From Escherichia phage P151, in sequence record PP083182.1: DNA of 40,500 nt; one strand, 5' to 3'. How positions within the stretch are numbered: the stretch's first letter is position 1; each line of letters starts with the position of its first letter. Positions 1,370-33,285 of this stretch are shown here, one piece after another. Made by a program: the position numbers and the translations under genes. The notes under the pieces were generated by a model. That model had not been told where the DNA came from. It was given only the letters and a program-made list of their open reading frames with translations, and ran no database searches.

Positions 1370-3484
1370 ATGTTACTATCCGACATCGAAGCAAACGGGT
1401 TGCTGCACAACGTTAGTCAATTTCACTGTGCGGTGACTTACGACTACACAACTGACCAGTACATCCGTTATCGACCTGATGACTTTGGGGCATATATTGA
1501 TGCTCTCGAAGCTGAGGTTGCTCGCGGTGGTCTCATTGTGTTTCACAACGGGCACAAGTATGACGTTCCGGTTATCGAGAAGCTGGCAAAGCTGATTCTT
1601 AATCGTGACGTTAAGTTCCCGAAAGAGAACGTATTGGACACCTTGGTGATGTCCCGACTGATTTACTCTAACATCAAAGACACCGATGCTGGTCTGCTCC
1701 GTGCTGGCAAGCTACCGGGTAGTCGCTTTGGGTCTCACGCTCTGGAAGCATGGGGCTACCGCTTAGGCGAAATGAAGGGTGAGTACAAGGACGACTTTAA
1801 GAAGTCACTGGAAGAGTCTGGTGATGAATACGAAGACGGGATGGAGTGGCTGTTCTTCAACGAAGACATGATGGAATATAACGTTCAAGACGTTGTAGTC
1901 ACCAAGGCACTCTTTGAGAAACTGTGTAGTAACACTTTCTATTTCCCTAACGAGACACCCGCTGGAAGCACAGAAGCAGACCGTTTCTGGAATGGTAGCA
2001 TTGAGGCTGTCAAACTGGAACATGATGCTGCATGGTTGTTAGCTAAGATGGAACGTAACGGTTTTCCTATTGACATCAAGTCCTTAGAGAACCTCTACGC
2101 TGAACTGGCTGGTCGCCGTGGTGAACTGCTGGTAGAACTAACCAACACTTTCGGCTCATGGTATCAGGCCAAGGGTGGCGTTGAAGCATTCCGTCATCCG
2201 AGAACTGGTAAGCCTCTCACTAAGTACCCTCGTGTGAAGTACCCGAAACAGGGTGGCATCTTTAAGAAGCCTAAGAACAAGAAGCAACGTGAAGGCTTAG
2301 AACCGTGTGAGTTGGATACCCGCGATTACGTTGAGGGTGCTCCGTATACTCCGGTTGAGCACGTTGTGTTTAACCCTGCGAGCCGAGACCACATCACTCG
2401 TGTGCTTACCAAAGCTGGCTGGGTGCCCGTTGAGTTCACTCCTAGTGGTGCGCCAAAGGTAGACGATGAGGTCTTAGAGCACGTTAAGGTAGACGACCCT
2501 GATGCACAACGTTGCATTGAGTTAATTAAAGAATACCTTATGATTCAGAAGCGTATCGGTCAGGTTGCTGAAGGTGATAACGGCTGGCTCCGAATGATTG
2601 GAGAGGATGGTCGTATTCACGGTAGCGTTAACCCGAACGGTGCGGTAACTGGACGCGCAACCCATAGTTTCCCTAACGTGGCACAGGTGCCTTCAATCCG
2701 TGCTGCTTATGGTGAACCTTGCCGTGCTGCTTTCGGTGCCGAGCACAACATGAAAGACGGTAAGCCAGACCCTTGGATTCAAGTTGGTGTGGATGCGTCC
2801 GGCCTTGAGCTACGCTGCTTGGGCCACTTCATGTATCGTTATGATGAGGGTGAGTACGTTGAGACCATCCTAACGGGTGACATTCATACGAAGAACCAAT
2901 TGGCTGCTGGTCTGCCGACTCGTGACAACGCTAAGACGTTTATCTATGGGTTCCTCTATGGTGCTGGTGCTGCGAAGATTGGACAGATTGTTGGTGGTAC
3001 TGCCGAAGATGGTAAGCGACTCATCAAGAACTTCCTTGAGCAAACTCCGGCTATCGCTGCGTTACGTGAAGCAATCACAGGGACACTCGTCAAGGACTCC
3101 AAGTGGGTTGGCGGTGAACAGAAAGTAACTTGGAAACGCCGTTGGGTTCGTGGCTTGGATGGTCGTAAAGTCCACGTCCGTAGTCCTCACGCTGCGTTGA
3201 ACACCTTGTTGCAGTCTGCTGGCGCTCTTATTTGTAAACTGTGGATTGTCAAGACAGAAGAGATGCTCCTTGAGATGGGCTACAAACATGGCTGGGATGG
3301 TGACTTCTGCCTCATGGGGTGGATACATGACGAGCAACAGCTTGCTTGCCGTACAGAAGAGATTGCCAAAGTTGTAATCGAAGTATCTCAACAGGCTATG
3401 CGCTGGGTAGGCGACCACTTTAACTTCCGGTGCCAATTAGATACTGAAGGAAAGATGGGTCCGAATTGGGCTGTATGTCACTAA
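1370..3484 (+). CDS. DNA polymerase gp5 (family A, 704 aa)
   Basis: Same length as T7 gp5; conserved blocks LIVFHNGHKYDVP (exonuclease), GSHALEAWGYRLGEMKGEYKDDFK, KTFIYGFLYGAG, HDE near C-terminus, ending GKMGPNWAVCH. Confidence 0.97.
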   Translation: MLLSDIEANGLLHNVSQFHCAVTYDYTTDQYIRYRPDDFGAYIDALEAEVARGGLIVFHNGHKYDVPVIEKLAKLILNRDVKFPKENVLDTLVMSRLIYSNIKDTDAGLLRAGKLPGSRFGSHALEAWGYRLGEMKGEYKDDFKKSLEESGDEYEDGMEWLFFNEDMMEYNVQDVVVTKALFEKLCSNTFYFPNETPAGSTEADRFWNGSIEAVKLEHDAAWLLAKMERNGFPIDIKSLENLYAELAGRRGELLVELTNTFGSWYQAKGGVEAFRHPRTGKPLTKYPRVKYPKQGGIFKKPKNKKQREGLEPCELDTRDYVEGAPYTPVEHVVFNPASRDHITRVLTKAGWVPVEFTPSGAPKVDDEVLEHVKVDDPDAQRCIELIKEYLMIQKRIGQVAEGDNGWLRMIGEDGRIHGSVNPNGAVTGRATHSFPNVAQVPSIRAAYGEPCRAAFGAEHNMKDGKPDPWIQVGVDASGLELRCLGHFMYRYDEGEYVETILTGDIHTKNQLAAGLPTRDNAKTFIYGFLYGAGAAKIGQIVGGTAEDGKRLIKNFLEQTPAIAALREAITGTLVKDSKWVGGEQKVTWKRRWVRGLDGRKVHVRSPHAALNTLLQSAGALICKLWIVKTEEMLLEMGYKHGWDGDFCLMGWIHDEQQLACRTEEIAKVVIEVSQQAMRWVGDHFNFRCQLDTEGKMGPNWAVCH

Positions 3485-3503
3485 TTAACAGGAGAAATAT
3501 ATC

Positions 3504-3797
3504 ATGGCTATTACTAAACGTTTTAAAGTATCATTCGAAATGACCGTAAAGGTTGACTCTGAGACTGAAGATATGCTGAAAGAACGTATCTTGGATTTGG
3601 CTCGTAGCATTCGTGATGGTGAGTCCGTGAGTGCACAGGACAAAGAGTTACTCGTGCAGGCTCTTACTCATGGTGCCGATGGTGTTGTTGCCTTTGCTGT
3701 TAAGCAGGGAGTTCGTAATGAAATCCGTGAGATGGGCATTGAGCACCACGGAGAGGGCATTAAGTTTGCACCAGCTACTATTCGTGAGGTGAAGTAA
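3504..3797 (+). CDS. gp5.5-like protein (97 aa)
   Basis: N-terminal M-A-(I/M)-TK-(R/K)-FKVSF and C-terminal ATxREV resemble T7 gp5.5; located directly after gene 5. Confidence 0.7.
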   Translation: MAITKRFKVSFEMTVKVDSETEDMLKERILDLARSIRDGESVSAQDKELLVQALTHGADGVVAFAVKQGVRNEIREMGIEHHGEGIKFAPATIREVK

Positions 3798-4006
3798 TGG
3801 GTGATTATCTACGTGTACTGGCGGCTATCAAAAGCTGCCCTAAGACCTTTCAGTCTAACTATGTGCGCAACAATGCGTCACTGGTGGCTGAGGCTGCGAG
3901 TCGTGGTCATATCTCTTGCCTATCAGTCGATGGGCGTAATGCTGGCGCTTGGGAAGTAACAGGCGAAGGCGTCCGTTTCCTGGCGCTGATGGGAGGTTGT
4001 GTATGA
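3797..4006 (+). CDS. gp5.7-like protein (69 aa)
   Basis: LxAIKSCPKTFQSNYVRNNASLVAEAASRGHISCLS closely resembles T7 gp5.7; start overlaps the 5.5 stop. Confidence 0.8.
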   Translation: MGDYLRVLAAIKSCPKTFQSNYVRNNASLVAEAASRGHISCLSVDGRNAGAWEVTGEGVRFLALMGGCV

Positions 4007-4185
4007 GCATATCTAAAAGTGACACTGTAACTATGCCTCGTGAAGCATGGAACGATGTTAACGCATATATTGAGTTCCTTGAGGGTCGCCTAGCGAAGCT
4101 GAATGCTCTCGAGGCCCACGGTGTAGACAATTGGTGTGGATATGATGATGCCATAACTGAACTCTTTACGGAGGATGACGTATGA
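4003..4185 (+). CDS. gp5.9-like protein (60 aa), possible RecBCD inhibitor homolog
   Basis: ATGA overlap with the 5.7 stop; acidic small protein at the T7 gene 5.9 position. Confidence 0.5.
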   Translation: MSISKSDTVTMPREAWNDVNAYIEFLEGRLAKLNALEAHGVDNWCGYDDAITELFTEDDV

Positions 4186-4475
4186 GTAACCCATTAACTG
4201 CAACAGAAATCCTACTGTCTAACTTACTGGCTGATGTACCTTGGTGCGATGAGTTGCCAGATGAGTTCGAACTGTTCGTGTCTGGAGATTGGACTGACGA
4301 AGGGAAGACCGAAGGTAAACTTGATGTTGTCAAACACTTACCTTCTGGTCGTTTCTTTGAGTGCTTCTTCACTCGACATGGCGACCACTGGCAAGGCTAT
4401 GAGACTTCCTTTGATGGATGTAGTGAAGTAGAACCTTATGAAGCCACTGTAATCTTATGGAAGGAGGTGAAGTAA
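4182..4475 (+). CDS. Hypothetical protein (97 aa), no T7 counterpart
   Basis: ORF with GGAGG RBS; start overlaps the 5.9 stop and stop overlaps the gene 6 start (translational coupling); acidic, Cys/His-containing. Confidence 0.6.
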   Translation: MSNPLTATEILLSNLLADVPWCDELPDEFELFVSGDWTDEGKTEGKLDVVKHLPSGRFFECFFTRHGDHWQGYETSFDGCSEVEPYEATVILWKEVK

Positions 4476-5389
4476 TGAGTGCAATTACACTGAATGAGTT
4501 CTATGAGATTCGCCAAGGTAAATCCGATAAGGGTGTTCTCGTAATGGATGGTGACTGGCTGGTATTCCAAGCGATGGCAGCAAGTGAAGTCGAGACCGAT
4601 TGGGGTGACGATGTGTGGACCTTAGAGTGTGACCACGGGAAAGCGTGGAACATTCTGGTAGACTCCATCAAGTCCTATGCCGGTCGCAAGAAGGCTTGGC
4701 GTGATGCGCCTATCGTATTGGCCTTCACTGACTCTGTGAACTGGCGTAAGGAACTTGTGGACCCAACCTACAAGGAGAACCGTAAGGCATCCCGTAAGCC
4801 TGTAGGCTACCATGCGTTCATCGAGCGTGTTCAAGCCTTTGAGGACTGGACGTCTATCCTTGAGCCTCGCTTAGAGGGTGATGACGTAATGGGAATCATT
4901 GGGTCTGGTGCTAAACATTTTGGTTTCAATAAGGCTGTGCTGGTCTCCTGTGATAAGGACTTTAAGACTATCCCTGATTGTGACTTCTTGTGGTGTACTA
5001 CTGGTAACATCTTGACTCAAGACCAGACGACTGCCGACTACTGGCACATCTATCAGACCATTAAAGGTGACTTGACAGATGGCTATGGTGGCATTCCGGG
5101 CTGGGGCGAGACTACCGCTGAGTGGCTGGAGAACCCATATGCCTTTGAACAGGTTGAGAAAACTTTCAAGTCTGGTGCTCGTAAGGGACAGACAGTTCTC
5201 GAATGGAAAAAGGTTGACATTGGTGAGCGAACCCTATGGGAAGCCATTGTGACACTTGGTGCGAAAGCTGGGATGACCGAAGAGGAAATCATTAAGCAAG
5301 GCCAGATGGCTCGCATCCTACGTTTCGAAGAGTATAACTTTATCGACAAGGAGATTTACCTATGGTCGCCGGAACAGTTGCGTTCATGA
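4475..5389 (+). CDS. 5'-3' exonuclease gp6
   Basis: GVLVMDGDWLVFQAM, PIVLAFTDSVNWRKELVDPTYK, EGDDVMG, DKDFKTIPDCDFLWCTTGNILTQ, KQGQMARILRFEEYNFIDKEIYLW match T7 gp6; ATG at 4475 after AGGAGG. Confidence 0.95.
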   Translation: MSAITLNEFYEIRQGKSDKGVLVMDGDWLVFQAMAASEVETDWGDDVWTLECDHGKAWNILVDSIKSYAGRKKAWRDAPIVLAFTDSVNWRKELVDPTYKENRKASRKPVGYHAFIERVQAFEDWTSILEPRLEGDDVMGIIGSGAKHFGFNKAVLVSCDKDFKTIPDCDFLWCTTGNILTQDQTTADYWHIYQTIKGDLTDGYGGIPGWGETTAEWLENPYAFEQVEKTFKSGARKGQTVLEWKKVDIGERTLWEAIVTLGAKAGMTEEEIIKQGQMARILRFEEYNFIDKEIYLWSPEQLRS

Positions 5390-5448
5390 TGTTCGCAATC
5401 GTAGCCTTCTCTATGGTGTTGGCTGCATGTATAGCTAAGAGTGTGTAA
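5386..5448 (+). CDS. Small hydrophobic ORF (20 aa), gp6.3-like by position
   Basis: MMFAIVAFSMVLAACIAKSV; overlaps the gene 6 stop. Very short, so speculative. Confidence 0.3.
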   Translation: MMFAIVAFSMVLAACIAKSV

Positions 5449-5476
5449 CTCTAGGCATTCTTCTCGACAGTGAAAT

Positions 5477-5499
5477 TAATACGACTCACTATTGAGAGG
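5477..5499 (+). promoter_or_regulatory. Phage RNAP promoter phi6.5 (TAATACGACTCACTATTGAGAGG)
   Basis: Exact match to T7 consensus from -17 to -2; precedes gene 6.5. Confidence 0.85.
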
Positions 5500-5551
5500 G
5501 GTGCCTATATGATACCTACTTTAAGTTCTAACTTTAAGGAGAACATTAACT

Positions 5552-6802: not shown

Positions 6803-8410
6803 ATGGCAAGCTCACAGAAACGTGAAGGCTTCGCGGAGAATGGTGCCAAGGCGGTGTATGACGCATTGAAGAACGACCGGAACTCCTATGAGACCCGTGC
6901 GGAAAACTGTGCGAAGTACACCATCCCTTCGTTGTTCCCTAAAGACTCCGACAACGCCTCTACTGACTATACCACTCCGTGGCAAGCAGTTGGTGCTCGT
7001 GGCTTGAACAACTTGGCCTCTAAGCTCATGCTCGCTCTGTTCCCTATGCAGACGTGGATGAAGCTAACCATCTCTGAGTTCGAAGCGAAACAATTGGTTG
7101 CACAGCCTGCTGAACTGGCGAAGGTCGAAGAAGGTCTCTCTATGGTCGAGCGAATCTTGATGAACTACATCGAGTCAAACTCATACCGTGTGACACTCTT
7201 TGAGACCCTCAAGCAGTTGGTAGTTGCAGGTAACGCTCTGCTCTACATTCCTGAGCCTGAAGGTACTTACAACCCCATGAAGTTATACCGCTTGTCTTCT
7301 TATGTTGTCCAACGAGACGCATTCGGCACGGTACTACAGATTGTGACCTTGGATAAGACTGCTTATGCAGCACTGCCAGAAGACGTAAGAAACTCTATGG
7401 ACTCAGGTCAGGAACATAAAGGCGACGAAATGATTGATGTGTACACACACATTTATCTTGACGAAGAATCTGGTGAGTACCTCAAGTACGAAGAGATTGA
7501 TGGCGTTGAAGTTGATGGCACAGATGCTTCTTATCCGGTGGACGCTTGTCCGTATATCCCGGTTCGCATGGTGCGTATTGACGGAGAGTCATATGGTCGT
7601 TCTTACTGTGAGGAATACTTAGGTGACTTACGGTCCCTTGAGAACCTCCAAGAAGCTATCGTTAAGATGTCAATGATTAGTGCAAAGGTTATCGGCTTGG
7701 TTAACCCGGCTGGTATCACACAGGTTCGTCGCTTAACGAAAGCACAGACAGGTGACTTTGTGTCTGGTCGTCCAGAAGACATCTCGTTCCTTCAGTTGGA
7801 AAAGGCCGCTGACTTCTCTGTAGCGAAAGCTGTGAGTGAACAGATTGAAGGTCGACTTTCCTATGCCTTTATGTTGAACTCTGCGGTACAGCGTACTGGT
7901 GAGCGTGTGACAGCCGAAGAGATTCGTTATGTTGCATCGGAACTGGAAGATACCCTTGGCGGTGTCTATTCGATTCTCTCACAGGAACTCCAGTTACCTA
8001 TGGTGCGTGTACTGCTGAAACAACTTCAAGCAACCAATCAGATTCCTGAGTTACCGAAAGAGGCCGTCGAGCCTACTATCAGTACCGGGATGGAAGCATT
8101 GGGTCGTGGTCAAGACCTCGATAAGCTGGAACGCTGTATTGCTGCGTGGTCTGCTCTTGCTCCCATGCAGAATGACCCGGACATCAACATTGCGACCATT
8201 AAGTTGCGCATTGCGAACGCTATCGGCATCGACACTTCTGGTATCCTTAAGACACCTGAAGAGAAGCAACAGGAGATGGCTGAGGCCGCTCAAGGTACTG
8301 CACTGGAGAACGCTGCTGCATCTGCTGGTGCTGGTGCTGGTTCACTCGCTACTGCAAGCCCTGAGAACATGCAAGCTGCTGCTGAACAGGCTGGAATGGT
8401 TCCAAATTAA
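6803..8410 (+). CDS. Portal (head-to-tail connector) protein gp8 (535 aa)
   Basis: Extensive identity to T7 gp8, e.g. TDYTTPWQAVGARGLNNLASKLMLALFPMQTWM, GESYGRSYCEEYLGDLRSLENLQEAIVKMSMIS, TAEEIRYVASELEDTLGGVYSILSQELQLP. Confidence 0.97.
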   Translation: MASSQKREGFAENGAKAVYDALKNDRNSYETRAENCAKYTIPSLFPKDSDNASTDYTTPWQAVGARGLNNLASKLMLALFPMQTWMKLTISEFEAKQLVAQPAELAKVEEGLSMVERILMNYIESNSYRVTLFETLKQLVVAGNALLYIPEPEGTYNPMKLYRLSSYVVQRDAFGTVLQIVTLDKTAYAALPEDVRNSMDSGQEHKGDEMIDVYTHIYLDEESGEYLKYEEIDGVEVDGTDASYPVDACPYIPVRMVRIDGESYGRSYCEEYLGDLRSLENLQEAIVKMSMISAKVIGLVNPAGITQVRRLTKAQTGDFVSGRPEDISFLQLEKAADFSVAKAVSEQIEGRLSYAFMLNSAVQRTGERVTAEEIRYVASELEDTLGGVYSILSQELQLPMVRVLLKQLQATNQIPELPKEAVEPTISTGMEALGRGQDLDKLERCIAAWSALAPMQNDPDINIATIKLRIANAIGIDTSGILKTPEEKQQEMAEAAQGTALENAAASAGAGAGSLATASPENMQAAAEQAGMVPN

Positions 8411-8430
8411 TACGACTCACTAATGGGAGA
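8408..8430 (+). promoter_or_regulatory. Phage RNAP promoter phi9 (TAATACGACTCACTAATGGGAGA)
   Basis: Overlaps the gene 8 stop codon; followed by a GGGAG..CTCCC hairpin. Confidence 0.85.
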
Positions 8431-8479
8431 GACAATGCGTCCTCCCTTTGAGTTAAACTTTATGAAGGAGATAACAATT

Positions 8480-9379
8480 ATGGCTGGTGAATCTAACGCT
8501 GACGTATACGCATCTTTTGGTGTGAACTCTGCGGTTGTTGGTGGGTCTACTCCTACTGACCACGAACAGGCTATGCTTGAACTTGATGTTGCTGCCCGTG
8601 ATGGCGATGATGCAATCGAGTTAGTTAGCAACGATGACCCGTATGGCAATCCAGACCCATTCGGTGAAGAAGATGAGAATCGTACTGAGATTCGTATCTC
8701 CACTGATGGTGAACCTGAAGTAACCGAAGAAGGTGAAATTGACTACGAAGAAGGCTCCGAAGAGTTTGAACCAGTTGGGGACGTTCCAGATGAACTGAAC
8801 GAAGCCTCAAGTCAACTCGAAGAGCACGAAGCAGGTTTCGAAGAGATGGTCAGTCAGGCTGCTGAACGTGGTCTGTCAGAAGAAACCATTGTCCGAATCC
8901 AGCAAGAATATGGCGAAGATGGTCTGTCAGAAGAGTCCTATGAAGAACTGGCTAAAGCTGGTTACTCTAAGTCCTTCGTTGACTCCTACATCCGTGGTCA
9001 GGAAGCTCTGGTAGAACAGTATGTTCAGTCCGTTATGGAGTATGCTGGTGGTGAAGAACAATTCCAAGCAATCTACAATCACCTCGAAGTGTCCAACCCG
9101 GATGCTGCTGAGTCTCTGATTAGTGCCTTGGAGAACCGTGACCTCGCAACAGTTAAAGCTATCGTGAATCTCGCTGGTGCAAGCCGTGCGAAGACTTTCG
9201 GTAAACCTGCTGCCCGTAGTATCTCTAAACGTGCCGTACCTGCTGCACCTGTACGCACCAAACAGTCTGGCTTTGAGTCACAGGCTGAGATGATTGCTGC
9301 AATGTCCGACCCTCGCTATCGTCACGACAGTAAGTTCCGTGCGGAAGTCGAGCGCAAGATGATGTACAGTCAGTTCTAA
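8480..9379 (+). CDS. Capsid assembly (scaffolding) protein gp9
   Basis: Start chosen at the ATG after GAAGGAGA (not the upstream ATG inside the promoter); MAGESNADVYASFGVNSAV, highly acidic, SYIRGQEALVEQYV and AMSDPRYR match T7 gp9. Confidence 0.92.
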   Translation: MAGESNADVYASFGVNSAVVGGSTPTDHEQAMLELDVAARDGDDAIELVSNDDPYGNPDPFGEEDENRTEIRISTDGEPEVTEEGEIDYEEGSEEFEPVGDVPDELNEASSQLEEHEAGFEEMVSQAAERGLSEETIVRIQQEYGEDGLSEESYEELAKAGYSKSFVDSYIRGQEALVEQYVQSVMEYAGGEEQFQAIYNHLEVSNPDAAESLISALENRDLATVKAIVNLAGASRAKTFGKPAARSISKRAVPAAPVRTKQSGFESQAEMIAAMSDPRYRHDSKFRAEVERKMMYSQF

Positions 9380-9382
9380 AAT

Positions 9383-9405
9383 TAATACGACTCACTATTG
9401 GGAGA
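9383..9405 (+). promoter_or_regulatory. Phage RNAP promoter phi10 (TAATACGACTCACTATTGGGAGA)
   Basis: Consensus promoter followed by GGGAGAG-loop-TTCTCCC hairpin at the transcript 5' end, as in the T7 phi10 leader. Confidence 0.9.
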
Positions 9406-9511
9406 GACATTACGTTCTCCCACTTTGAGTGATACACAATGAGAACCAACTCGTTTCAAGTAGTACCTCACATTTAAACTTTTATCATAAATCAACAGAA
9501 GGAGATTCAAC

Positions 9512-10546
9512 ATGGCTAACATGACTGGTGGACAACAGATTGGTAAGGACCAAGGTAAAGGCATGAGCGCTGGTGATAAACTGGCTCTGTTCCTGAAGGT
9601 CTTCGGCGGTGAAGTTCTGACTGCATTTACCCGTACCTCCGTAACTATGAACAAACACCTCGTGCGTTCTATTCAGTCCGGTAAGTCCGCGCAGTTCCCT
9701 GTGCTGGGTCGTACCAAAGCTGCTTATCTGCAACCGGGTGAAAACCTCGATGACAAACGTAAAGACATGAAGCACACTGAGAAGACCATTAACATTGATG
9801 GCCTGCTGACTGCTGACGTTCTGATTTACGACATCGAAGACGCAATGAACCACTATGACGTGCGTTCCGAATATACCGCTCAGTTGGGTGAGTCTCTGGC
9901 TCTGGCTGCTGATGGTGCGGTTCTGGCTGAAATGGCTAAATTGTGTAACCTTCCGGCTGCTTCCAACGAGAACATCGCTGGCTTAGGTACTGCAAGTGTT
10001 CTGGAAGTAGGCGCTGCGGCTGACCTGCAAGGCGACCAAGTTAAGCTGGGTCAGGCTATCATTGCACAGTTGACTCTGGCTCGTGCACGTCTGACTAAGA
10101 ACTATGTTCCGTCTGCGGACCGTACCTTCTACACCACTCCTGATAACTACTCTGCGATTCTGGCGGCTCTGATGCCTAACGCTGCAAACTATCAGGCGCT
10201 GATTGACCCGTCTACCGGTTCTATCCGCAACGTCATGGGCTTCGAAGTTATTGAAGTTCCGCATTTGACCGCTGGTGGTGCTGGTAATGACCGTGAAGAT
10301 GCACCTTCTGAACAGAAACACGCATTCCCTGCGACTGCTACTGGCAATGATAAGGTTGCTCTGAACAATGTGGTCGGTCTGTTCTGCCACCGCTCTGCCG
10401 TTGGTACTGTTAAGTTGAAAGATATGGCGCTGGAACGTGCTCGTCGTGCCAACTATCAGGCTGACCAGATTATCGCTAAGTACGCGATGGGTCACGGTGG
10501 TCTGCGTCCTGAAGCAGTAGGTGCGCTGGTTTTCAAAACGGCTTAA
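9512..10546 (+). CDS. Major capsid protein gp10A (344 aa)
   Basis: MxxMTGGQQ-x-G, GDKLALFLKVFGGEVLTAF, SAQFPVLGRT, LIYDIEDAMNHYDVRSEYT, ERARRANYQADQIIAKYAMGHGGLRPEA match T7 gp10A. Confidence 0.98.
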   Translation: MANMTGGQQIGKDQGKGMSAGDKLALFLKVFGGEVLTAFTRTSVTMNKHLVRSIQSGKSAQFPVLGRTKAAYLQPGENLDDKRKDMKHTEKTINIDGLLTADVLIYDIEDAMNHYDVRSEYTAQLGESLALAADGAVLAEMAKLCNLPAASNENIAGLGTASVLEVGAAADLQGDQVKLGQAIIAQLTLARARLTKNYVPSADRTFYTTPDNYSAILAALMPNAANYQALIDPSTGSIRNVMGFEVIEVPHLTAGGAGNDREDAPSEQKHAFPATATGNDKVALNNVVGLFCHRSAVGTVKLKDMALERARRANYQADQIIAKYAMGHGGLRPEAVGALVFKTA

Positions 10547-21040: not shown

Positions 21041-21063
21041 CAATACGACTCACTATTGGGAAG
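21041..21063 (+). promoter_or_regulatory. Phage RNAP promoter phi17 (CAATACGACTCACTATTGGGAAG)
   Basis: Consensus match directly after the gene 16 stop; followed by GGGAAG..CTTCCC hairpin. Confidence 0.85.
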
Positions 21064-21108
21064 GCTATCACAGCTTCCCTTTATTATAACCAACTAAGGA
21101 GGAACATT

Positions 21109-23250
21109 ATGGCAACGCCCTATAAAACAATCGCCACATATCTACTGGATTCAGTAACCACTGAGTTCGACATTCCATATCAATACCTTGCTCGCCGGTT
21201 CGTTGTTGTAAGTCTTCTGTCAGACTCAGGCGAGCCCCGTGTTCTCAATATGGGTTCAGAGTATCGCTTCGTCTCAAAGACACGAGTAGCCTTGCTTCGC
21301 CCTTGGGGAGCTAATGATGGATATTCTCGCATTGAGATTCGACGTGTGACCTCGGCTACAGACCGAATCGTGGACTTTGCTGACGGTTCTATCCTTCGTG
21401 CCTATGACCTGAACATTGCGCAGCTACAGTCACTTCATGTTTCAGAAGAGGGTCGTGAGCAGACCGCTGATTTAAGTAAGGCTTCCATGGAGCAGTCCCA
21501 ACAGTTCGCTGCTGAGTCCCAACAGTCCGCCACAGAATCAAAAGGTGCTCGTGATGAAACACTTGCTGCCATTGCGAGTGCTGGGGATAAGGCGATGACC
21601 ATTGCTCTGATTGACGATGACCCAACTCGTGGTGATGCCTTGGTTCGTGTTCGCCAGATTATTGATGGCCCAAAGGCTCAGACAGTCCACAGTAAGTTCG
21701 CCAGAATGATTGACGTGCTTGACTTTGATGGTGTGTTGGGTGATGGTGTCAATGATGATGCTAATGGTATCGAGAGAGCAGACCGCTGGTGTGCGACCAA
21801 TGGTTATACCTTAAAGTTCCCTCGGGGTCTCTATCGTATCACGCGCGGTATTGAATCATATGCTGATTGGGTGGGTGAAGGTTCTGCGACAGTTGGTACA
21901 TACCCTCTGTATGATGACAAGCAATTTCTTGTTGCAGGCCAGCGCCAGAAAATTCCTGGCTCTAACATCCTGTTCGATGGTATTTCTACTGCAAAGTTCA
22001 CCACAGCACGCACAGATAAGTTTGCTTCCTTCTCTTATGTGATTCGTAAGAATGGTCGCTCGGCCTACCGGTCAGGTGCTGGTATCCAGAAGATGGGTAT
22101 CATCCTTAACTTCGACTTCAAAGATTCTACAGGTGCTATTACTTACCCAAACAATGACAACAGCTCAACTGCTGACGTCGGTCTGCTTCTGGTTAACGTA
22201 GAGTCCAAGAACATTCGCGAAGTTAACGTTGGGGGCTACTACTCGCTGTCAGGTATTGTACACTTTGGTGTAGACCCTGATAACACACACCTTACCGAAG
22301 TACGTACTATGGGTGACATTGGACTATCTGTCATCGGTGACTCAACCGGAACCAACTCAGGGTTAAACTTGATTGGATGCTTTATTGGTGCAAACGACCA
22401 CCACAGCCGTAGCGTAATCACGGGGAATGAGCGTTGGGGTGACACTGCCTTATACATTGACATCCCGAGTGCTGCGGCTTCAGGTAGTCGTAATGGTATC
22501 TCTATGATTGGTGGTACCATCACAACCAAGACAAACATACCTATGAAGCTCGCTCGCTGTGGGGCAATCAACTTCACCAACGTTGTCTTTGAGAACGCGA
22601 CTCAGGCTGGCTCGTCTCAGGCTGGCGGAACCAAGCGATTCACAGGGACTGCGGATACAGGTGACATTGGGTTTGTTAACTGCCGCTTGAACGCCGAGCA
22701 GATTAAGAACACTGGAGCTCTCCTCGATACGGCGCCTAATGCAACCATTACCGTTATTGGTGGCAACAAGGACTATGGCTTTGAGATTTGGCATGGTAAG
22801 TCAGGTATTCGGATGAATACTGGCTCTGAACAGAACTTCCAGATGACTAACGACCCATCAACCATCACCTCAGGTCTTCGCTTCCGCAGAACCTCTTCTG
22901 GTACTCTCGAAGTAACAGTAGACAATGAGCGTGTTCTCAATATGAACAAAAATGGCATTGGGTTCGTTAAGACCCGTAAGGTTGTCCGTCCAGTGGTAGA
23001 TGGTGCCGTAACTGTTGATACCAACATTGTGTCACTTAGTGGTGGTACACTCGACCTCTCCACAATCACGGGAACTGATGGGCTGAACAGGGTGACGCTA
23101 ATGGCTAACACCTCCGCTGATATAATCACAGTGAAGACGGCTGGTGGTAACATTCGTATCGGGACTGACTTTGTTCTCAGCGGTTTCAAGACCCTGAATC
23201 TGGTATATAACGGTGCATTCTGGCTTCAGGAGGGCGGTCGCCCAGATTAA
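21109..23250 (+). CDS. Tail fiber/tailspike gp17: T7-like N-terminal adaptor domain plus pectate-lyase-like beta-helix C-terminal domain (713 aa)
   Basis: N-terminal ~150 aa (FDIPYQYLARRFVVV, RVTS-x-TDR-x-VDF-x-DGSILRAYDLN) matches the T7 gp17 N-terminus; the rest contains DFDGVLGDGVNDDANGIERA and Gly/Asn/Thr-rich repeats typical of tailspike depolymerases. Confidence 0.85.
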   Translation: MATPYKTIATYLLDSVTTEFDIPYQYLARRFVVVSLLSDSGEPRVLNMGSEYRFVSKTRVALLRPWGANDGYSRIEIRRVTSATDRIVDFADGSILRAYDLNIAQLQSLHVSEEGREQTADLSKASMEQSQQFAAESQQSATESKGARDETLAAIASAGDKAMTIALIDDDPTRGDALVRVRQIIDGPKAQTVHSKFARMIDVLDFDGVLGDGVNDDANGIERADRWCATNGYTLKFPRGLYRITRGIESYADWVGEGSATVGTYPLYDDKQFLVAGQRQKIPGSNILFDGISTAKFTTARTDKFASFSYVIRKNGRSAYRSGAGIQKMGIILNFDFKDSTGAITYPNNDNSSTADVGLLLVNVESKNIREVNVGGYYSLSGIVHFGVDPDNTHLTEVRTMGDIGLSVIGDSTGTNSGLNLIGCFIGANDHHSRSVITGNERWGDTALYIDIPSAAASGSRNGISMIGGTITTKTNIPMKLARCGAINFTNVVFENATQAGSSQAGGTKRFTGTADTGDIGFVNCRLNAEQIKNTGALLDTAPNATITVIGGNKDYGFEIWHGKSGIRMNTGSEQNFQMTNDPSTITSGLRFRRTSSGTLEVTVDNERVLNMNKNGIGFVKTRKVVRPVVDGAVTVDTNIVSLSGGTLDLSTITGTDGLNRVTLMANTSADIITVKTAGGNIRIGTDFVLSGFKTLNLVYNGAFWLQEGGRPD

Positions 23251-23265
23251 CATAAGGAGGACACA

Positions 23266-30588: not shown

Positions 30589-33285
30589 ATGACTAACGTA
30601 ATCAACGCACCAAAGAACGACTTCTCTGACATCGCTAACGCAATCCAGCCGTACAACATTCTGGCTGACCATTATGGCGCACAGCTTGCAGCTACGCAGC
30701 TTGAGTTGGAACACGAAGCGCACACCGAAGGCGAGAAGCGTTTCCTTAAGGCAATGGAACGTCAAATCAAAGCGGGTGAGTTTGGTGACAACGCAGTAGC
30801 TAAACCGCTCCTGTCATCTCTCGCACCAAAGTTTATCGAGGCGTGGAACACTTGGTTCACTGAAGTGGAGACGAAGCGTGGCAAGCGTCCAGTGGCCTAC
30901 CTAAAGGTGAGGGGGATTGAGCAAGGTGCAGATGGTAAGTATCAGCAAGTGCATCAAGAGGTTGCACCGGAAGCTGCCGCATTCATCACACTGAAAGTCA
31001 CACTGGCTTGTTTGACCAAAGAGGAATACACCAACCTACAATCGGTTGCCACTAAGATTGGTCGTAGCATCGAGGATGAGTTACGTTTCGGACGCATTCG
31101 TGACGAAGAAGCGAAACACTTTAAGAATCACGTACAGGAAGCACTTAACAAGCGCGTAGGCATCGTCTACAAGAAAGCATTCATGCAAGCTGTAGAAGGC
31201 AAGATGCTAGATGCTGGTCAACTGCAAACCAAGTGGACCACATGGACACCTGAAGAATCAATTCACGTTGGTGTGCGCATGTTGGAACTGCTCATCGGGT
31301 CTACTGGTCTCGTTGAGCTACACCGACCGTTTGCTGGTAACGTTGAGAAGGATGGAGAGTACATCCAGTTAACCGAGCAATACGTTGAACTGTTATCTAA
31401 ACGTGCTGGGGCACTGGCTGCAATCGCTCCAATGTACCAACCTTGCGTGGTCCCTCCGAAGCCTTGGACTTCTCCGGTAGGTGGTGGCTATTGGGCTGCT
31501 GGTCGCAAGCCTCTCTCTCTGGTTCGTACTGGTAGCAAGAAGGGCTTAGAGCGTTACAACGATGTGTATATGCCTGAAGTTTACAAGGCGGTGAACATCG
31601 CACAGAATACTCCTTGGAAGATTAACAAGAAGGTTCTGGCAGTGGTCAACGAGATTGTGAACTGGAAGCATTGCCCGGTTGACGATGTACCTGCTCTCGA
31701 ACGTGGTGAACTTCCGGCTAAACCTGAAGACATCGACACGAACGAAGCGTCACTCAAAGCGTGGAAGAAAGCGGCCTCCGCAATCTACCGCAAAGAGAAG
31801 GCACGAGTGTCACGCCGCATGAGCATGGAGTTCATGTTAGGTCAGGCCAATAAGTTCGCACAGTTCAAAGCTATCTGGTTCCCGATGAACATGGACTGGC
31901 GCGGTAGAGTGTACGCAGTCCCAATGTTTAACCCGCAAGGCAACGACATGACTAAAGGTCTGTTAACGCTCGCTAAAGGTAAACCAATCGGTGTTGATGG
32001 ATACTACTGGCTGAAGATTCACGGTGCAAACACTGCTGGTGTGGACAAAGTGGACTTTGCAGAACGCATCAAGTTCATTGAGGACAACCACGAGAACATC
32101 ATGAGCGTTGCGGCTGACCCGATTGCTAACACTTGGTGGGCCGAACAAGACTCTCCGTTCTGCTTCCTCGCGTTCTGCTTCGAGTATGCAGGAGTCCAGC
32201 ACCACGGGATGAACTACAACTGCTCTCTTCCGCTGGCGTTTGATGGTAGCTGCTCCGGTATTCAGCACTTCTCCGCAATGCTTCGTGATGAAATTGGTGG
32301 TCGCGCTGTTAACTTACTGCCGAGCAAGGAAGTCCAAGACATCTACCGCATCGTTGCCGAACGTGTGAACGAGATGCTCCGCGAAGCGGTAATCAACGGC
32401 ACTGATAACGAAGTGGAAACCGTGACAAACAAGGACACTGGTGAAATCACTGAGAAGCTCAAGCTGGGAACGAAAGAGTTAGCTGGTCAGTGGCTGGCCT
32501 ATGGTGTGACTCGCAAGGTAACTAAACGTTCTGTCATGACGTTGGCTTATGGTTCCAAAGAGTATGGCTTCCGTGACCAAGTTCTTGAGGACACCATTCA
32601 GCCAGCTATCGACGATGGCAAGGGATTGATGTTCACTCAACCGAACCAAGCGGCTGGCTATATGGCTAAACTGATTTGGAACGCTGTAACGGTGACTGTG
32701 GTCGCTGCGGTCGAAGCAATGAACTGGCTGAAGTCTGCTGCTAAACTGCTGGCTGCTGAAGTCAAGGACAAGAAGACTAAAGAGGTTCTCCGCAAGCGCT
32801 GCGCGGTACATTGGGTAACACCTGATGGCTTCCCTGTGTGGCAGGAGTATCGCAAGGCAGTACAGACTCGTTTGAACCTGATGTTCTTGGGTCAGATTCG
32901 TTTGCAGCCTACTGTGAATACCAACAAGGATAGCGGAATTGACGCTCGTAAGCAGGAGTCAGGCATCGCACCTAACTTTGTTCACTCAATGGACGGCAGC
33001 CACCTGAGAATGACTGTAGTGCGCTCCAATGAGGTCTACGGTGTGGAATCCTTCGCACTGATTCATGACTCATTTGGTACTATCCCCGCTGACGCTGGCA
33101 ACCTGTTTAAAGCAGTGCGTGAAACGATGGTCAACACTTACGAAGAAAACGATGTACTCGCAGACTTCTATGAGCAATTCGCTGACCAGTTGCACGAGTC
33201 GCAGCTTGACAAGATGCCTGAGATGCCAGCTAAAGGCGCTCTTGACCTGCAAGAAATCCTGAAGTCAGACTTTGCGTTTGCCTAA
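30589..33285 (+). CDS. Single-subunit DNA-dependent RNA polymerase gp1 (T7-type, 898 aa)
   Basis: KNDFSDI, PCVVPPKPWT, YMPEVYKA-x-NIAQNT-x-WKINKKVLAV, MNMDWRGRVYAV, PLAFDGSCSGIQHFSAML, TLAYGSKE-x-GFR, specificity-loop-like NTNKDS...KQESGIAPNFVHS, C-terminal ALIHDSF...FAFA; about 15 aa longer than T7 RNAP. Confidence 0.98.
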   Translation: MTNVINAPKNDFSDIANAIQPYNILADHYGAQLAATQLELEHEAHTEGEKRFLKAMERQIKAGEFGDNAVAKPLLSSLAPKFIEAWNTWFTEVETKRGKRPVAYLKVRGIEQGADGKYQQVHQEVAPEAAAFITLKVTLACLTKEEYTNLQSVATKIGRSIEDELRFGRIRDEEAKHFKNHVQEALNKRVGIVYKKAFMQAVEGKMLDAGQLQTKWTTWTPEESIHVGVRMLELLIGSTGLVELHRPFAGNVEKDGEYIQLTEQYVELLSKRAGALAAIAPMYQPCVVPPKPWTSPVGGGYWAAGRKPLSLVRTGSKKGLERYNDVYMPEVYKAVNIAQNTPWKINKKVLAVVNEIVNWKHCPVDDVPALERGELPAKPEDIDTNEASLKAWKKAASAIYRKEKARVSRRMSMEFMLGQANKFAQFKAIWFPMNMDWRGRVYAVPMFNPQGNDMTKGLLTLAKGKPIGVDGYYWLKIHGANTAGVDKVDFAERIKFIEDNHENIMSVAADPIANTWWAEQDSPFCFLAFCFEYAGVQHHGMNYNCSLPLAFDGSCSGIQHFSAMLRDEIGGRAVNLLPSKEVQDIYRIVAERVNEMLREAVINGTDNEVETVTNKDTGEITEKLKLGTKELAGQWLAYGVTRKVTKRSVMTLAYGSKEYGFRDQVLEDTIQPAIDDGKGLMFTQPNQAAGYMAKLIWNAVTVTVVAAVEAMNWLKSAAKLLAAEVKDKKTKEVLRKRCAVHWVTPDGFPVWQEYRKAVQTRLNLMFLGQIRLQPTVNTNKDSGIDARKQESGIAPNFVHSMDGSHLRMTVVRSNEVYGVESFALIHDSFGTIPADAGNLFKAVRETMVNTYEENDVLADFYEQFADQLHESQLDKMPEMPAKGALDLQEILKSDFAFA

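Follow-up and report, generated by a model that had tools for sequence, protein, structure and literature searches.

The gene located at 21109..23250 on the + strand of Escherichia phage P151, in the window that was analysed (the whole stretch of 40,500 nucleotides), encodes a protein of 713 aa in which a tail anchor of the T7 gp17 type is followed by a right-handed parallel beta-helix. We consider it probable, at roughly 65%, that this protein forms a trimeric tailspike anchored in the manner of gp17, with a beta-helix that binds and most likely cleaves a surface polysaccharide of the host, and that its gene entered the phage backbone as a complete cassette. It would be the single receptor-binding protein of P151, a Berlinvirus-like relative of T7.

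The original prediction had placed the ORF at these coordinates, and its ATG start and its length were confirmed. The gene occupies the T7-type position of gp17, being preceded by the gene of a gp16-like internal virion protein of 1315 aa and followed by the holin and small terminase genes, and its product (WVW36877.1) is annotated as "tail fiber protein". Upstream of it, at 21042..21061 (+), there is an exact match to the promoter of the phage RNA polymerase, AATACGACTCACTATTGGGA, which is the counterpart of T7 phi17. When up to three mismatches are allowed this promoter has 12 copies in the window, all of them on the + strand, where 0.01 would be expected by chance. The twelve sites span 259-36603 (for example at 9384, 13775, 21042, 26129 and 33294) and their consensus is near the T7 promoter, with TTGGGA where T7 has TAGGGA. 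The gene has its own Shine-Dalgarno sequence, AAGGAGG, at 21097..21103 (+). Between the gene and its ortholog in Rahnella phage Sarma103 there are 223 synonymous and 55 non-synonymous codon differences, and in the beta-helix alone these are 133 and 22, respectively. The tailspike gene is under purifying selection in this comparison, and it is a real gene and not a chance ORF. The P151 genome (40,500 nt) is permuted relative to the usual T7 map, with the DNA polymerase near the start, the terminase at about 24.3-26.0 kb, a region of low GC (0.42-0.43) after it at 26-28 kb, and an RNA polymerase of 898 aa at 30589-33285. In the literature we found nothing about P151 or Sarma103 but a taxonomy listing.

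In the first 25 kb of the window the backbone of P151 is 95.3% identical to Yersinia phage vB_YenP_WW1 (WW1); with PYPS50, FE44, BSP161 and further Studiervirinae of the Berlinvirus type it shares about 90-93% identity. Within positions 1-25000, megablast leaves only one large block unmatched to WW1, 21103..23248 (+), which is essentially the tailspike ORF and represents the exchanged cassette. Identity to WW1 is about 97% to the left of the cassette and about 99% to its right, whereas inside the cassette it is 17-55%, rising to about 70% at most over a conserved stretch of the anchor (21325-21474). Identity to Sarma103, conversely, is 77-96% inside the cassette and 52-77% in the flanks (52-73% in the left one), and the cassette DNA matches only ORF45 of this phage. 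A three-way alignment shows the switch from WW1-type to Sarma103-type sequence between 21103 and 21104, so that the left recombination junction coincides with the Shine-Dalgarno sequence of the tailspike gene. The right junction is found at 23248..23259 (+) in TAACATAAGGAG, which comprises the stop codon and the Shine-Dalgarno sequence of the holin and occurs in WW1 as well as in Sarma103; past it the window returns to WW1-type sequence. The phi17-like promoter is WW1-type sequence and is therefore part of the backbone and not of the cassette.

In the WW1 lineage the displaced gene codes for an unrelated fibre of 622 aa. This WW1 gp17 (WW1 21094-22962) has a C-terminus, ...VSDRRLKENI..., which resembles the S74-type intramolecular-chaperone domain of self-cleaving fibres. 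In P151, a complete cassette from another phage lineage would have recombined at the two conserved Shine-Dalgarno sequences flanking gene 17, taking the place of this different type of fibre. The anchor came with the cassette, because it is 93% identical in amino acids to the anchor of Sarma103 and only 56% to that of WW1. For this reason the description of the protein as chimeric, made in the original prediction, holds for its deep history and not for the event in the P151 genome, where a whole gene, anchor included, was exchanged. That such a foreign anchor fits this tail is assumed from the viability of the phage. A second, small block without a megablast match to WW1 (4008-4462, 455 bp) is located where small genes follow that of the DNA polymerase. 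Two ORFs, of 78 aa (3949-4185) and 97 aa (4182-4475), are found there, and the block looks like another mosaic patch.

ORF45 of Sarma103, a "tail fiber protein" (UKH49720.1), is placed in the same gene slot as the P151 tailspike and is its ortholog, with 713 aa, no gaps and 85.9% nucleotide identity over the full length. Besides the anchor, the amino acid identity is 84% in the linker, 94% in the beta-helix and 92% in the C-terminal domain. Sarma103 differs, however, in having another Studiervirinae backbone and a host, Rahnella (Yersiniaceae), that belongs to another family. As to the substrate, it may be either that the hosts of P151 and Sarma103 share a glycan or that a few substitutions shifted the specificity.

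The N-terminal anchor comprises aa 1-122 (21109..21474, +). It was recognised by PF03906, the N-terminal domain of the phage T7 tail fibre, with an E-value of 1.1e-30 (106.9 bits, cutoff 25.2), and its sequence matches PDB entries 7boz and 8e4g (T7 gp17) with E-values of about 1e-38. Foldseek aligned it to 7ey9, 7ey7 and 7boz with E-values of about 2e-08, a target-normalised TM of 0.53-0.61 and 54-56% identity. The anchor was modelled with a pLDDT of only 63-80 as far as about aa 80, and from aa 82 onward the value drops below 50. The original prediction had assigned about 150 aa to the T7-like N-terminus, which is fair, as the alignment of other anchors of the gp17 type extends to about aa 146-165. 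The anchor is followed by an Ala/Ser/Gln-rich helical linker (aa 123-197; 21475..21699, +), presumed to be a trimeric coiled coil. DSSP assigned helices in the predicted model at 103-167, 175-186 and 193-198. The linker has a pLDDT under 50, which a trimeric stalk modelled as a monomer would be expected to give. The linker is the part that diverges most from Sarma103, and its length varies among homologs.

Compared with T7 gp17 (PDB 7boz, 8e4g, 8dsp), the P151 protein shares the anchor (aa 1-122, about 55% identical), the gene position, a promoter of its own and a helical stalk after the anchor. In T7 the coiled-coil shaft is long and rough LPS is bound by a small domain at the tip, whereas the shaft of the P151 protein is short and leads into a beta-helix of some 350 aa and then a beta domain of 164 aa. 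Judging from T7 gp17, the P151 protein may form homotrimers, six per virion, whose N-terminal 122 aa or so would dock on the tail where gp11 and gp12 meet, while the beta-helix and the C-terminal beta domain would be held out by a short coiled-coil stalk.

The beta-helix (aa 198-549; 21700..22755, +) had been predicted from the residue composition and a sequence motif. In the structure predicted for the monomer it is formed by three-stranded rungs, is right-handed and was recognised as such by structure comparison. It is followed by an all-beta C-terminal domain (aa 550-713; 22756..23247, +), for which no confident structural assignment was obtained. The richness in Gly, Asn and Thr on which the prediction drew is present, with 12.9, 7.4 and 9.1% in aa 198-560 against 4.9, 2.5 and 7.4% in the anchor, and so is the motif DFDGVLGDGVNDDANGIERA at aa 205-224 (21721..21780, +). 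This is a variant of the N-terminal cap motif (DFDGVLGDGVNDD...), whose canonical form in the homologs is DFGAKGDxVxDDT and from which P151 and Sarma103 diverge, with an insertion of one residue. The family profile aligns the same cap motif in GH55, PfbA, 7chu, the Sf6 tailspike, AlgE, the phiAB6 tailspike and phi92 gp150. When PDB sequences were searched with this profile the cap motif alone aligned, and no characterised enzyme was matched across the catalytic region. PF12708 (Pect-lyase_RHGA_epim), which covers the cap motif DFGAxGDGxTDDT and the first rungs, gave no match to the P151 protein at E<=1, although it is matched by 12 of 14 close and 40 of 62 distant homologs. Membership of this family thus applies to the P151 protein only by transitivity, since the homologs match while its own motif diverges. 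NCBIfam gave no match for the tailspike protein either.

The assignment to an enzyme class was approached through signature motifs. Pectate lyases of the PL1 type carry the signatures vWiDH and RxPxxR (the catalytic Arg and the Ca2+ site), and neither was found in the P151 protein by a regular-expression search. The GH28 family is defined by four ordered motifs, NTD, G/QDD, G/SHG and RIK, none of which is present in the protein. The catalytic loop of AlgE-type mannuronan C5-epimerases/lyases is YG(F/I)DPH(D/E), and the P151 protein departs from it, with Phe386 and Asp391 at the Tyr and His positions. We have therefore rejected an assignment to GH28, PL1 or AlgE on the basis of signature motifs. 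Pfam showed no Peptidase_S74 domain (the endosialidase-type chaperone) in the protein, although two of the 62 distant homologs have one, and no SGNH or deacetylase domain. With these signatures absent and the PF12708 threshold missed, the term pectate-lyase-like, used in the original prediction, is valid for the fold only and does not extend to the enzyme class.

The family comprises 62 sequences which are 26-68% identical to the P151 protein and have a mean column identity of 15%. Nevertheless K271, R301, T345, D350, Y377, D391, D430, H431, H432, R434, D451 and E495 are kept in 54-62 of the 62 sequences, and it is the conservation of these polar residues in spite of such a low mean identity that argues for catalysis. 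Two motifs were distinguished by their conservation. GVDPD (aa 387-391; 22267..22281, +) lies in a T1 turn and contains the candidate active-site residue D391, present in all 62 sequences, together with P390 (58/62) and D389, which is D or N in all of them. The other candidate active-site motif, NDHHSR (aa 429-434; 22393..22410, +), lies in a long T3 loop and is invariant in 14 close homologs; in the whole family H432 is found in 62/62, R434 in 61/62, H431 in 59/62 and D430 in 54/62. According to the strand register of the model (DSSP), D350, Y377, D391, D430, H431, H432, R434, D451 and E495 are placed in or beside the T1 and T3 turns, and the PB1 strands flanked by those turns belong to five successive rungs (357-362, 381-386, 404-409, 446-451 and 479-481). 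In known beta-helix enzymes the substrate groove is located at the T1/T3 turns flanking PB1. We infer from the model that the conserved polar residues constitute a candidate active site in this position.

Solved beta-helix tailspikes and depolymerases, namely GVE2 ORF18 (7chu), Depo32 (7vz3), AS12 gp42 (6eu4), Fri1 gp49 (6c72) and CBA120 TSP1/2, are 10-16% identical to the P151 protein. Catalytic residues are not transferable from them, and none of these matches is better than the others by a clear margin. The combination of a gp17 anchor with a horizontally acquired enzymatic module is well established in Autographiviridae, with examples in K1F, in KP32-type Klebsiella phages, in Pectobacterium phages and in O16-dependent Teseptimavirus and Kayfunavirus phages (PMC7693777; PMC11990801). 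The gp17-anchored spikes that are like the one of P151 include the K1F endosialidase and the KP32-type, Kp9 and Kp7 depolymerases of Klebsiella phages (PDB 7xy1, 7y5s, 8x8m, 9m4d), and the SGNH spikes of Pectobacterium phages follow the same logic of a gp17 anchor joined to a glycan-active module. The P151 protein differs from these enzymatic spikes in that it has no detectable sequence similarity to them past the anchor, no S74 chaperone domain and no second spike docked on the first.

The beta-helix module is rare and belongs to an uncharacterised beta-helix family. A tblastn search found it in four of 50,697 phage records, which are those of Sarma103, of alia (two records) and of vB_Eco_J-01, the last two being E. 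coli myophages of 147 kb. A HMMER scan of 1.84 billion proteins yielded 136 clusters at 50% identity, and a search at the DNA level for the module in 5,426 complete E. coli genomes gave no match. The module was also found in two MAG contigs (GTDB representatives) and three loci of IMG/VR. The homologs are joined to anchors of the types T7 gp17 (5), CBA120 Tail_spike_N (4), P22 Head_binding (2), tail-collar (2) and Mtd_N (1), and 20 of the 62 carry a Phage_depo_C domain. Their genomic contexts include the gp17 slot of a T7-like contig, a SU10-like podovirus, the multi-tailspike locus of alia and an E. coli prophage. This variety of anchors and contexts indicates that the family behaves as a mobile tailspike module. 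The contigs JBLXCH010000019.1 (40,136 bp) and JAEZZU010000064.1 (43,537 bp) are of phage size and were binned as "Motiliproteus sp." and "Proteobacteria bacterium" MAGs. The first of them is probably a mis-binned phage genome, since it has the T7-like order gp15, gp16, spike, holin and terminase.

The same beta-helix and C-terminal module is present in alia gp023, a "tail protein" of a Justusliebigvirus (YP_009985126.1), and in the prophage protein WP_097490404.1. Both are 46-48% identical to the P151 protein over aa 183-713, approximately, and keep all the candidate active-site residues. However they have other N-terminal anchors and belong to other virion types, and their specificity may differ. 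In alia, a phi92-like myovirus, gp023 (8764-10488 of the locus analysed) fills one slot of a locus with several spikes. The genes of two larger tail proteins (958 and 719 aa) come directly before it, and a spike that degrades colanic acid (colanidase) is encoded about 4.6 kb downstream. The slot appears to be swappable, as among the deposited phi92-like phages only alia and vB_Eco_J-01, whose module is about 47% identical, carry it. The prophage protein is an E. coli tailspike of 710 aa, 48% identical to the module, found at 3402-5534 of a locus from the E. coli 2013C-3033 chromosome and at 8001-10133 of a second locus. Its gene directly precedes those of two holins, a GH19 endolysin and a spanin-like DUF2514 protein, beside yfgI/yfgH/pdeF. 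Seven of the 5,426 complete E. coli genomes carry this homolog, which exists there in two sequence variants (99% and 92%), and it is also present in 378 contigs. NCBI calls it "GH28-related protein" on the strength of the N-cap region alone, with 24 bits where the cutoff is 500. O146 appears in one cluster name for a carrier of this prophage homolog. The genome records state no serotypes, however, and the homolog is only 48% identical to the P151 module, so that it was set aside as a guide to the target glycan.

The groove on one face of the beta-helix would bind a polysaccharide of the host surface, which could be an O-antigen, a capsule or another exopolysaccharide. Most likely this glycan would also be cleaved, allowing the virion to cross the glycan layer and reach the outer membrane, with K271, R301, D350, Y377, D391, D430, H431, H432, R434, D451 and E495 as the candidate active site. 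The reading of the protein as a glycan-directed spike, already made in the original prediction, is thus supported as to the fold and the probable role, with catalysis being putative and argued from sequence. The presence of the module in the Justusliebigvirus phage alia led us to consider the N4 glycan receptor (NGR) as a target. This was rejected, because the NGR binder of such phages is a deacetylase fibre of the gp142 type (bioRxiv 10.64898/2026.04.02.716166) and the module was not found in N4 or Bas60-62 by tblastn against the 50,697 phage records. We would also suggest, although tentatively, that the P151 tailspike belongs to an uncharacterised family of glycan-active beta-helix enzymes with a constellation of its own (GxDPD in T1, NDHHSR in T3 and the invariant K271, T345, Y377 and E495), to which none of the current GH or PL signatures corresponds. 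It is mildly unusual that copies which are 92-94% identical in the receptor-binding part (aa 198-713) serve phages of E. coli and of Rahnella, and for this reason the target could be a glycan that Enterobacterales have in common, as opposed to an O-antigen specific to a strain.

The same conserved residues could be read in another way, as the binding site of a tailspike whose beta-helix recognises a glycan without any catalysis. We think this possible but rather unlikely, since Asp, His, Glu, Arg, Tyr and Lys residues that are invariant across 62 sequences are more typical of catalysis, while binding sites usually vary with specificity, and most of the solved tailspikes of the same architecture are enzymes. 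Less probable still is an enzyme that modifies the glycan and leaves its backbone uncut, for instance an epimerase or an esterase. The catalytic Tyr and His of AlgE are replaced by Phe386 and Asp391, the profile match to AlgE is confined to the N-cap motif, and the protein has no SGNH or deacetylase domain.

The C-terminal beta domain, having no confident structural assignment, could in principle be a tip domain with a protein receptor or the LPS core as its ligand, in the manner of the T7 fibre tip, the beta-helix then being only a rigid shaft. This seems very improbable to us, as the fold, the family and the distribution of anchors are all typical of glycan-directed tailspikes and the conserved residues belong to the helix rather than to the C-terminal tip. 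A tailspike that binds and most likely cleaves a surface polysaccharide is therefore the reading that we prefer.

Swapping in a spike of this kind is a well-known route of phage host change, and in other respects the P151 tailspike is ordinary; the current understanding of phage host recognition is unchanged by it. The module is rare and without an assigned enzyme class, which makes it a reasonable choice for biochemical work on depolymerases. [quoted passage not shown] For P151 itself, the exchange explains how an ordinary Berlinvirus-type backbone gained a different host-recognition device.
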